NCBI RefSeq assembly: GCF_054482595.1
Contig: NZ_JBTHVH010000006.1
Direction: 5' to 3' (one strand)
Length of the DNA stretch: 46,161 bases
DNA from: a plasmid
In this document: piece by piece, positions 7,201 through 10,200 of the stretch
Numbering within the stretch: position 1 is the stretch's first letter
Layout: the number at the start of each line of letters is the position of its first letter
Position numbers: made by a program

Positions 7201-10200
7201 CATCCAGCAGGAATTCACGTGATTTTTTGGAAAGGAGTCTGGTGTCGGCAGTTTGCAACTGAGCGTCCTGGCCGTTGAGTTCGTTTTGTGTTTTCGCCAA
7301 GGCGGCCGCTAAGTGCTGGGTGCCGTCGCAGCCTTCGAAGCGCAGACATAGGAACAACTCTCGCAGCAAACCTTTCCGCAGACTTTCTTTCTCGTCGCAG
7401 TACTGCCACATGGCTTCATCGACCGATCGTCGCTGCTCGTTCAGGAAGAGACATACAGATTCCAGATCCCTTTTGGTCAGCAGGCTCAGTGCTTGCTGTC
7501 TTACTGTTGCAAACGGTAGTTGCAGATCAATGCTGTCATCAATGAACAGGTGCAGTACTTCAGCTGCCTTGCTGACATTTTTAGCTGCTTTTTGCCAATC
7601 CTTAAACACCGCTTCCTGCGCATAATCCTTTGCCTTCTGTTTGGTCTGTCTGACATGATGCACAAAGCCATCGGCAATACGTTCCAGCGCTTGCTGCCAT
7701 CGCGTTTGAAGATAGCACAATAAATACAGCCATTGGCTGCCTACGGTTTGACGTTTCAGTTTGGCACCGTAGTAGTCGACTTTCTCTGCCAGGTGTTGCA
7801 GATTTTTCTGCGACAGTGATAGCGTGCTCAACAGCAGATCCACTTCCGGCATCCAATGCTGGATATGGCGATAGACAATCAGTTCTTTCTCCAACTCGGT
7901 TCCGGTGAAGTTACGAGCCGATTGTCGCAACTGTCGGAACGGCAGTGGACCTGTGCCGTTCACGAGCTCCGCCAGTGCTTGCTTAAGACCGCGTGACATT
8001 GCACGCTCAAGGTGCGCGGCCATGTGTTCCTGTTCGTCTCCCACCACCTGACTGATGATCTTTTGCAGCGTGCTGTAGGCAGGGATTGCGATCTTCTGCC
8101 CCGAACAATATTCATTGGCCGCATCGAAGAGGTGCCTAGGCGCTGTCCAGGCTCTGGCTTGCTGGGATAAGTAATCTCTCAACGCCGCTCCATGGTCTTT
8201 GACATTCCAGCGCTGGTAGTTGCAGAGCTGGAAAACACGTTGGTAAATCCGTTCGTTCTCTTTTGGCGTGAGATTAAAGGGTCTACAGCCTGGGCCTGGT
8301 AGAACGGTTTGATAAACGTATTTGAGGTCCTGCTTGATCTGATGAAAGCCGGGATTCAGCACCACCGGCTTGGCTTTGAAATAGCCCAGCAGTACCACCA
8401 GCATGTAACGCTGGCCCCGATGACGGAGGCTTTTAGCGATCGCCAGTTCCTTATCGTTCAGCGAGAAAAAGAAGCGTTGGTCGGCGGAGGTGAAAGCGGG
8501 GGGTCCATATAACTCATCTTGTTCTGCCTCGGACAAGATTTGGACACGTTCTTCGAATGCCATGGATTTAGCCCAAAAAGACTAAATCTTACTCAAACAG
8601 AGCCCAAATAGGGATCTCGAAAAAAGTAATACCCCTCTGGAGGCCACAGACGGCGGGGCCTCCAGAGCACTTTGTCGTTTTTGGACGGAAAATCCCTAGA
8701 ACCCCTCAGTGGGACGAAATGATCCGGACCGCTGGCTCCCTGAAGCTGGGCAAAGTACAGGTTTCAGTGCTGGTCCGTTCATTGCTGAAAAGTGAACGTC
8801 CTTCCGGACTGACTCAGGCAATCATTGAAGTGGGGCGCATCAACAAAACGCTGTATCTGCTTAATTATATTGATGATGAAGATTACCGCCGGCGCATTCT
8901 GACCCAGCTTAATCGGGGAGAAAGTCGCCATGCCGTTGCCAGAGCCATCTGTCACGGTCAAAAAGGTGAGATAAGAAAACGATATACCGACGGTCAGGAA
9001 GATCAACTGGGCACACTGGGGCTGGTCACTAACGCCGTCGTGTTATGGAACACTATTTATATGCAGGCAGCCCTGGATCATCTCCGGGCGCAGGGTGAAA
9101 CACTGAATGATGAAGATATCGCACGCCTCTCCCCGCTTTGCCACGGACATATCAATATGCTCGGCCATTATTCCTTCACGCTGGCAGAACTGGTGACCAA
9201 AGGACATCTGAGACCATTAAAAGAGGCGTCAGAGGCAGAAAACGTTGCTTAACGTGAGTTTTCGTTCCACTGAGCGTCAGACCCCTGTTACCGATGCAAG
9301 AACAGGGGAGTTTCATGAAATGCCTGTTTAGGAGTGATTAAAGGTAACTTGTGCGCAGAAGGTCAGGTGTGTGGTGGTTAGTACAGACTAGTGAATGTTG
9401 TAACTAAACTATATTTTTATTAAAGGCCGGAGGTGGTGTTCCTCCGGCCTTAATTACGTTTCCGTGTTCATTAGTCGATGAACTGGCGGATCAGTTCCAG
9501 AATGGCAATCAGCGCGTTTGCAAGCGCCGCTACCGCCCTCAGAACGATGATTAACAGGTTAATCATCCGTTTTCTCCATAAATGGAGTAAAGACACCGTG
9601 GCTTGCTCTTACACTGCCTGTCACCACGGCTTCTCTTCGTCTTGTCAGTTGTAGAGAGTCTCACTCCTGCCAGAGCACAGATAACCAGCACCACCTGTAT
9701 TACCTGTCAGGACTTTGAACCTGTTCATGCCGCATTTAGCGGAATGCAGGGAGAGACTCACCACAGAGCTAACCCTCTGATTATACGTTTATCTAACGTT
9801 CAGGCAAACCGTTAACGCACAGTCACTGCCCGTCATATTGCATAATCAGGCTTCACGGATTATCATACTATTGTCAGTTGTAGAGAGTTTCCCTTCCGGG
9901 CTGAGTTACCAGCTCGCACCGGAACCGTAAAAAAGCCGACCTCACCAGTCGGTTTTTTTACGTCTGCGGTTTCCCGCTTCGTTTAAATCTATTTTAAATG
10001 AATAAATTGTTCTGCGGCAAACCCAACAACATAAGGACGTTAGGGTTGATGGTTGCCGAAATCGCGGTGCGTTACGTGAATTCTGAGGTTTTGCGAGGGG
10101 GATTGGGCGCGAGAATTTACGAGAGAGCGCCGGAACAATGCCGGGATCACAAACCATCACCCGTGAAAGAAATCTTCCGGCATTGCCCGGTCAGGTAGTA

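Follow-up and report, generated by a model that had tools for sequence, protein, structure and literature searches.

Among described systems, the closest to the locus studied here are the chromosomal dinQ-agrB locus of Escherichia coli and its plasmid-borne relatives. The primary dinQ transcript is inert: its sequence 1 pairs with sequence 2, which leaves sequences 3 and 4 to close the Shine-Dalgarno (SD) sequence (PMC3567139; PMC5066626). Loss of 44 nucleotides (nt) lets sequences 2 and 3 pair and opens the SD, and the small RNA (sRNA) AgrB binds the region of sequence 2, re-closes the SD, and triggers cleavage by RNase III (PMC3567139; PMC5066626). The related dql family, with dqlA and dqlB members on both plasmids and chromosomes, dates from 2016, when it was defined by the argument from covariation in the 5' untranslated region (UTR) that is used again below (PMC5066626). 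The homologue on pOXA-48 (IncL) is toxic, is neutralized by agrB in trans, and kills on plasmid loss; this killing is rescued by agrB, and dqlB is present in 53% of IncX plasmids (PMC12365149, published in 2025). IncX3 plasmids had seemed to lack toxin-antitoxin systems until dqlB and the adjacent agrB were found and cloned from pOXA-484; dqlB inhibited growth, the whole locus did not, and the stability of a model plasmid was raised (PMC12317039, also from 2025). In this work, we analyzed a locus of this kind in an IncX3 NDM-5 resistance plasmid of 46,161 bp (contig NZ_JBTHVH010000006.1). The whole of this stretch is referred to as the window, and all positions are those of the window.

Identity and Annotation of the Locus

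We found that the locus is very probably the agrB-dqlB type I toxin-antitoxin (addiction) module of IncX3 plasmids and a plasmid relative of chromosomal dinQ-agrB. The computations made here concern membership of the toxin and sRNA families, selection on the coding sequence (CDS), covariation of the sRNA with its target and with the segment that locks the mRNA, a thermodynamic switch, and the absence of the LexA operator.

This module is already known, not new: the family was named in 2016, and the IncX3 locus was tested in 2025. A sequence-only reading of the window had regarded the locus as unannotated and as lying outside the usual IncX3 picture, and this part of it has to be withdrawn given the published work (PMC5066626; PMC12317039) and the RefSeq copies of the plasmid, which annotate dqlB. 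The gene is missing from the annotation of many GenBank copies. No record inspected has an agrB RNA feature; in the RefSeq tables of loci L014 and L002, the dqlB and dinQ CDS are present and agrB/agrA RNA features are absent. The primers used in PMC12317039 anneal exactly and uniquely in the window, at 9464-9585 for the dqlB insert and at 9291-10271 for the whole locus. The searched literature contained no further IncX3-specific work on agrB-dqlB.

The dqlB Toxin Gene

The toxin gene is a 31-codon open reading frame (ORF) on the minus strand at 9471-9566 (stop codon included), present as the sequence-only reading had claimed. It encodes the 31-amino acid (aa), single-helix hydrophobic peptide MINLLIIVLRAVAALANALIAILELIRQFID. 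This peptide matched the NCBIfam model NF041473 (DinQ-like type I toxin DqlB) with 71.7 bits against a cut-off of 35 and aligned over its full length (1-31/31). The model for DinQ proper (NF041472) failed, with 23 bits against a cut-off of 30 and residues 18-30 alone aligned. Judged from these sequence models, the window peptide is a relative of DinQ, not DinQ itself. NCBIfam alone has a family for it; no Pfam family covers the 31-aa peptide, and the models of TisB and ZorO gave no match to it. The earlier label of a DinQ/TisB-like toxin can be kept in its first half, which is borne out by the full-length match to the curated DqlB model and by ~70% DNA identity to chromosomal dinQ over 9523-9736 (ORF and UTR), whereas TisB holds as a mechanistic analogy only. 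The DinQ sequence given in that reading was also correct except for its start codon, which is GTG.

A mechanical ORF list lengthens dqlB to a GTG at 9596 (41 aa). The ATG form is favored by the alignment of the NCBIfam profile over residues 1-31 and by the RefSeq annotation at 9471-9566, where the identical protein WP_000609145.1 is named dqlB. An SD sequence (GGAG) sits 7 nt upstream of this AUG.

For comparative analysis, we used 11 plasmid loci (IncX1, X3, X5, F, I1, I-gamma/K, HI2, U, and L) and one K-12-type dinQ locus. Among the 11 plasmid loci, the ratio of nonsynonymous to synonymous differences (pN/pS) of the dqlB ORF was 0.17, which indicates purifying selection, and third positions dominated the differences (30/11/91 by codon position). 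The IncX5 copy encodes an identical peptide at a DNA identity of 83%, all six differences in the ORF being synonymous. The small hydrophobic gene expected of a type I toxin-antitoxin system is present here and is under selection as a coding sequence.

Predicted Promoter and Structure of the dqlB mRNA

The predicted dqlB promoter (9780-9807, minus strand) reads TTGCCT-16-TATAAT and scored 10/12 in a consensus scan. The -10 box and the start region GTTAGC of this promoter line up with the mapped -10 and +1 of E. coli dinQ. The G at 9773, aligned with the mapped dinQ +1, is the predicted start and gives a 5' UTR of 207 nt (9567-9773, minus strand) that carries the regulatory elements.

The full-length dqlB mRNA folds far more stably than shuffled sequence (z = -6.4). 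In its minimum free energy (MFE) fold, the 5' end is paired with the target region of the sRNA, and the SD and the AUG lie in separate closed hairpins. We projected the MFE structure of the window onto an alignment of 13 toxin mRNAs, with controls in which the pairing partners were slid. The percentage of paired cells (83.6%, vs 37-50% in the slid controls) is biased upward because one of the aligned sequences supplied the structure. The counts of compensatory (double) changes are less affected by this bias, and such changes occurred in 41 pairs, vs 12-25 in the slid controls.

These changes are found in the elements that matter for regulation. The counterpart of dinQ sequence 1 is the 5' end of the mRNA (9746-9773, minus strand), referred to here as the lock, which is predicted to keep the full-length mRNA inert by pairing with the sRNA target region; in the three helices formed by these two segments (helices 1-3), 14 of the 23 pairs have compensatory changes. 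One UTR stem-loop has such changes in 9 of 12 pairs. The SD hairpin CTCCA-TTTA-TGGAG (9574-9587, minus strand; helix 12), equivalent to dinQ sequences 3:4, sequesters the GGAG, is evident in the sequence and forms in the folds, and has compensatory changes in 4 of its 5 pairs. A further hairpin of 9-10 bp, GAUGAUUAAC/GUUAAUCAUC (9546-9567, minus strand; helices 13 and 14), encloses the start codon and was identified both as an inverted repeat and in the folds. It is 95-100% paired across the homologues, dinQ included, with one compensatory pair. The conserved MINLLII codons form this AUG hairpin as an inverted repeat of 10 bp without mismatches, GATGATTAAC/GTTAATCATC, which dinQ and a DqlA-like gene retain through the compensatory pair.

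The 3' end of the mRNA is presumably set by a GC-rich hairpin at 9423-9451 (minus strand), which has 11 pairs, eight of them G-C. UUUAA alone trails it on the toxin strand, and both the hairpin and this short tail are kept in all homologues and in dinQ. The promoter with its ~207-nt UTR, the SD hairpin, and the 3' hairpin with its poor U-tract had all been read from the sequence beforehand and were recovered at the same positions, as was every other element listed there; that list had omitted the start-codon hairpin.

The AgrB sRNA and Its Predicted Pairing With the Toxin UTR

The predicted agrB promoter (TTGCAT-17-TATCAT; 9838-9866, plus strand) is divergent to that of dqlB and aligns with the -35 and -10 boxes of E. 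coli agrB and agrA. It was read from the sequence; the consensus scan missed it because its -35 box matches at just 3/6 positions. Downstream lies an AgrB-family antitoxin sRNA of ~87 nt (9874-9961, plus strand), which begins with a single-stranded seed of 21 nt, continues with an internal stem-loop, and closes with a terminator hairpin and U7. It matched the Rfam model RF02891 (AgrB) over model positions 1-84/84 with 47.8 bits (gathering score 40), the sole gathering-level Rfam hit in the whole 46-kb window. The fold of the sRNA is more stable than expected (z = -4.6) and leaves the 5' end free. The divergent promoter and the ~87-nt plus-strand RNA from ~9873 with a T7 terminator, both proposed earlier, agree well with these results.

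Other Rfam candidates were rejected. OrzO-P (RF02083) reached 29.8 bits against a gathering score of 60, with model positions 45-76 matching the terminator hairpin, and weak hits to Thr_leader, RNAI, Twister-P5, isrP, and others were all below their gathering scores. The sub-threshold hits at 9856-9963 match the terminator hairpin of the sRNA only. This hairpin (9936-9952) is terminator-like in both directions, with an A-run upstream and a T-run downstream, and a promoter-like sequence on the minus strand (TTGCCG-18-TAAAAT, 9991-10020) faces it.

AgrB-family RNAs adjoin the toxin in nine of the 11 plasmid loci (Rfam, E <= 0.01). At this threshold, no Rfam AgrB hit was found beside dqlB in L008 (IncU) and L013 (pOXA-48, IncL). 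A functional pOXA-48 agrB has been published, and the Rfam AgrB model misses divergent members of the family.

The sRNA and the toxin UTR share an exact direct repeat of 18 nt (9642-9659 = 9871-9888), which had been noticed earlier and was found again by a repeat finder. It lengthens to 41 nt at 80% identity (9625-9665 vs 9854-9894). Chance would give ~7e-6 exact repeats of this length within 965 nt; in 1000 shuffles, the longest repeat averaged 9.1 nt and never exceeded 16 nt. The earlier proposal of perfect pairing in trans needs a correction: with the predicted start at 9873/9874, just 15-16 nt of the exact repeat lie inside the sRNA. The predicted duplex is perfect over these 15-16 nt and extends imperfectly to ~24 nt, with 21 Watson-Crick pairs, two G-U pairs, and one mismatch. 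The target site (9645-9668, minus strand) is ~75 nt upstream of the AUG and holds the equivalent of dinQ sequence 2. Across the 11 loci, 62-76 nt separate the target from the downstream start codon; ten loci fall within the narrower range of 69-76 nt.

When the 5' 30 nt of each sRNA were compared with the toxin UTRs, the best pairing was with its own UTR; the core of the site varies, and the sRNA follows. The pairing positions out of 30 were 26/24 for the window, 28/28 for dinQ-agrB, and 28/26 for locus L009. The duplex energy of the cognate pair was -45.3 kcal/mol, vs -29.8 kcal/mol with the dinQ UTR. A scan for sRNA targets across the window gave the dqlB UTR as the best site (-38.5 kcal/mol), and the next one (-30.9 kcal/mol) was at background level. 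The computed pairing and the covariation suggest that an RNA antitoxin acts on the toxin mRNA by base pairing, as is characteristic of type I systems.

Proposed Mechanism

By comparison with dinQ, we propose that a dqlB mRNA of ~350 nt is transcribed from the minus strand by a constitutive sigma-70 promoter, starting near 9773. The primary transcript would be translationally inert, with its 5' end paired around 9645-9671 and the SD and the AUG each in its own hairpin. Removal of ~50 nt from the 5' end, to a new end near 9720 by analogy with dinQ +44, would free 9645-9671, which may then compete for the 5' arm of the SD hairpin and leave the ribosome-binding site partly open. The divergent AgrB (9874-9961) is predicted to pair through its unstructured 5' end with 9645-9671, to re-close the SD hairpin, and to form a substrate for RNase III, so that toxin synthesis would be off in plasmid-carrying cells. 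In a cell that loses the plasmid, the sRNA would no longer be replenished, leftover mRNA would be translated, and the membrane peptide DqlB would kill or arrest the cell (post-segregational killing). The start sites, the processing site, the cleavage by RNase III, and the relative half-lives of the two RNAs in this scheme would be those expected from homology to dinQ.

The computed probability that the SD is unpaired follows this scheme. It was 0.004 in the full-length dqlB mRNA, 0.13 in mRNA truncated at ~9720 (the alignment equivalent of dinQ +44), and 0.006 with the target blocked; the same three states gave 0.12, 0.19, and 0.02 for dinQ, which served as the positive control. In these models, the UTR appears to form mutually exclusive structures of the dinQ type (1:2, 2:3, and 3:4), with the sRNA on element 2, and covariation is seen in the lock, in the equivalents of SL2 and SL4, and in the SD hairpin.

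Several observations weigh against an addiction module that works in this way. The computed switch is partial, as the SD hairpin is still the majority state in the truncated mRNA, and the AUG hairpin is closed in all computed states, that of the truncated mRNA included. The signals at the ends of the two transcripts are not strong either, given the poor U-tract of the toxin terminator and the weak -35 box of the agrB promoter (3/6). Perfect pairing over 15-16 nt is shorter than that of dinQ/agrB (30/31 nt) or pOXA-48 (35 nt). Also, the effect of the sRNA is not separated from the inertness of the long UTR in the published IncX3 work because neutralization was obtained with the whole locus behind PBAD. 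The searched literature contained no measured transcript ends, processing site, or RNA half-lives for the IncX3 locus.

LexA Control and Alternative Explanations

The homology to LexA-regulated dinQ raises the alternative that dqlB encodes a dinQ-like, LexA-controlled SOS or stress peptide of the membrane, which would modulate host physiology during DNA damage (e.g., membrane polarity, nucleoid compaction, or recombination during conjugation) and would not serve addiction. A CTG-N10-CAG motif in the toxin gene region fits this idea, as does the homologous element of plasmid pTF2, to which a published analysis gave a heterology index of 11.64, that of a weak LexA site. However, the dinQ operator CTGTATGATTATCCAG, which overlaps the -10 box, aligns by column with ACGTATAATCAGAGGG in the window, so both half-sites are destroyed and the operator is absent from the homologous promoter position; none of the 11 plasmid homologues keeps both half-sites. 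A pattern search found no CTG-N10-CAG in 9760-9870, and the two approaches agree with the sequence-only reading, which had seen no LexA box at the toxin promoter. The single nearby motif, CTGTATTACCTGTCAG at 9695-9710, lies inside the dqlB 5' UTR, 63-78 nt into the transcript, and belongs to a conserved stem-loop with covariation (helix 8). It agrees with the LexA consensus at 11 of 20 positions and may owe its presence simply to conservation of the RNA. The window as a whole shows no enrichment of such motifs either (13 found vs 8.9 expected). Together with the plasmid stabilization published for the locus (PMC12317039), these findings make an SOS function in place of addiction very unlikely.

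It is harder still to believe that the locus is an inactive relic, hitch-hiking beside the resistance island with homologues of dqlB and agrB that no longer function. Transposons have rearranged this region, and a Tn3 end lies 135 bp from the locus; these facts would suit such a relic, as would the weak sRNA -35 box and toxin U-tract. These points stand against a region of 715 bp that is at least 99% identical in 935 PLSDB records, an IncX5 peptide that has stayed identical through exclusively synonymous ORF differences, regulatory elements that are all intact and co-varying, and a pOXA-484 amplicon, defined by primers with exact matches in the window, that was toxic and stabilizing (PMC12317039). 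A role in conflicts among mobile elements, besides or instead of addiction, deserves somewhat more consideration. Shut-off of host transcription or displacement of the plasmid could release the toxin, which would protect against phages by a form of abortive infection or would exclude or compete with co-resident plasmids. The architecture suggests that the release logic of an unstable sRNA and a pre-made inert mRNA would be the same in this case, and distinct recognition classes among plasmid groups are expected if cross-neutralization matters. Other type I modules, such as hok/sok, have been reported to exclude phage T4, which we also count in favor of such a role. Nevertheless, neither of the two recent studies contains phage or plasmid-competition data on any dqlB locus (PMC12365149; PMC12317039), and we consider this explanation, which is compatible with an addiction module, unlikely. 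An addiction module of the agrB-dqlB family is our preferred reading of the locus.

Recognition Classes and Significance

Across plasmid groups, the sRNA 5' end co-varies with its UTR target and with the segment at the mRNA 5' end by which this target is masked. We tentatively propose, with somewhat more doubt than confidence, that plasmid agrB/dqlB modules fall into orthogonal recognition classes and that an SOS-toxin design became one of constitutive addiction when the LexA operator was lost. In each class, a change in the sRNA seed may be accompanied by changes in the UTR target and in the mRNA 5' lock. One class, distinct from the chromosomal dinQ/agrB of the host, may comprise IncX3, IncX1, and at least one IncF plasmid. 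Neither the absent SOS control nor the orthogonal recognition classes are described in the literature covered. If the proposal is true, co-resident or incoming plasmids of the same class would cross-neutralize addiction (i.e., anti-addiction and compatibility groups based on toxin-antitoxin systems), and those of other classes would not.

IncX3 plasmids are a main vehicle of the carbapenemases NDM-5 and OXA-181 and were thought to lack a toxin-antitoxin system until 2025. The module helps to explain their persistence without antibiotic selection, a point already published. Antisense strategies against agrB and designs for plasmid curing need the exact seed and target, which we place at 9874-9897 of the sRNA and 9645-9668 of the mRNA.

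Genomic Setting and Distribution

The locus lies at the border between the resistance island and the plasmid backbone, as had been proposed. The edge of the island (IS3000/Tn3) is marked by an exact Tn3 terminal inverted repeat of 38 bp at 9248-9285, 135 bp from the dqlB terminator hairpin. A truncated Tn3-family tnpA (ORF 8719-9252), annotated as a pseudogene in RefSeq, ends at this repeat. The backbone side of the locus runs toward a SprT-like gene, hns, and topB. On that side, a 61-aa ORF, MDRKSNSDSYQRWMIEKADKRERTQISMSFVKMKDVLFNVLAIGTVLAALVVIFYEVQSSL (10228-10413, minus strand), whose product has a hydrophobic helix at the C terminus, overlaps the 3' end of the CDS annotated at 10371-10649; the ORF itself is without annotation in the RefSeq copy. 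The published clone of the complete agrB-dqlB locus stops at 10271, within this ORF.

The window was 100% identical to IncX3 NDM-5 plasmids of 46,161 bp over the 10.5 kb and 7 kb compared, and OXA-181/484-type IncX3 plasmids (51,479-51,480 bp) are 100% identical to it over 9286-10000. A DNA search of PLSDB gave 1908 records with a match to the locus, 92% of which are conjugative plasmids. A tblastn search of PLSDB with the 31-aa peptide gave no match, which is almost certainly due to low-complexity filtering of so short and hydrophobic a query and does not count as evidence.

The window has one toxin gene and one sRNA gene, and tblastn, blastn, and Rfam searches found no second dql or agr copy in it. 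Tandem or second dql/agr copies are present in IncX1, IncF, and IncI1 relatives. Tandem dql copies, with up to three agrB-like genes that have differing seeds, were seen in L006 (1109-1427), L003 (1214-1297), and L007 (1445-1540), and the second agrB-like gene of L006 matches the L009-type target better than the adjacent agrB-like gene does. The IncF Klebsiella plasmid OW967220.1 (L004, 623-715) has a chimeric locus, in which a window-type 5' UTR and agrB with an identical recognition sequence are joined to a DinQ/DqlA-like ORF (MEKRMGALIDKAIIVLKALIVFLELIRMFF) that is without annotation in that record.

Comparison With Known Systems

Among the systems compared, tisB/istR-1 and zorO/orzO share with the window locus only a geometry, in which a small hydrophobic toxin is encoded by an mRNA whose long 5' UTR has to be processed, and a divergently transcribed sRNA binds this UTR at a site well upstream of the SD. 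They have no sequence or family relationship to it, and TisB uses a ribosome standby site, unlike the SD-hairpin switch of dinQ. The hok/sok system of plasmid R1 is likewise a type I addiction system of a plasmid, with an inert full-length mRNA that is processed for activation and a toxin that gives ghost cells. It is unrelated in sequence, and no Rfam hit to it was found in the window. Sok is encoded in cis as an antisense RNA that overlaps its target, and 3' trimming activates the mRNA, whereas the window sRNA is trans-encoded and 5' processing is the step suggested for its target mRNA.

The locus of pOXA-484 (IncX3; PMC12317039) appears to be the same as that of the window, judged by the exact primer sites and by the identity of OXA-181/484-type IncX3 plasmids to the window over 9286-10000. 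No difference between the two loci was detectable in these comparisons, and the window plasmid is of the 46,161-bp NDM-5 type. The locus of pOXA-48 (IncL; PMC12365149) has a toxin of the same family (MINLLIVVLRAVVAVSNAVIAVLELIRQYFD in L013) and the same divergent layout. Its DNA is ~71% identical to that of the window, the complementarity reported for it is 35 nt vs ~24 nt (16 perfect) in the window, and its sRNA has diverged so far that the Rfam AgrB model does not detect it at E <= 0.01.

The chromosomal dinQ locus of E. coli shares much of its design with the window. The two peptides have the core MI..IIVL and ALIA.LELIR in common, the 5' UTRs are homologous (~70% identity) with aligned -10 boxes and start sites, and the distance from the sRNA target to the start codon is 72 nt in dinQ vs 75 nt in the window. 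The logic of the lock, the SD hairpin, and the sRNA switch is also shared, as is a divergent agrB with the same promoter layout and terminator. However, DinQ has 27 aa and a GTG start and is without the 7-residue insert AVAALAN of the window peptide. The dinQ locus has two sRNA genes (agrA and agrB) and the window one, and the recognition sequences of the two are orthogonal. Finally, dinQ has two LexA operators and is SOS-induced, whereas the window has none; the proposed role is a response to DNA damage for dinQ and plasmid addiction for the window locus.

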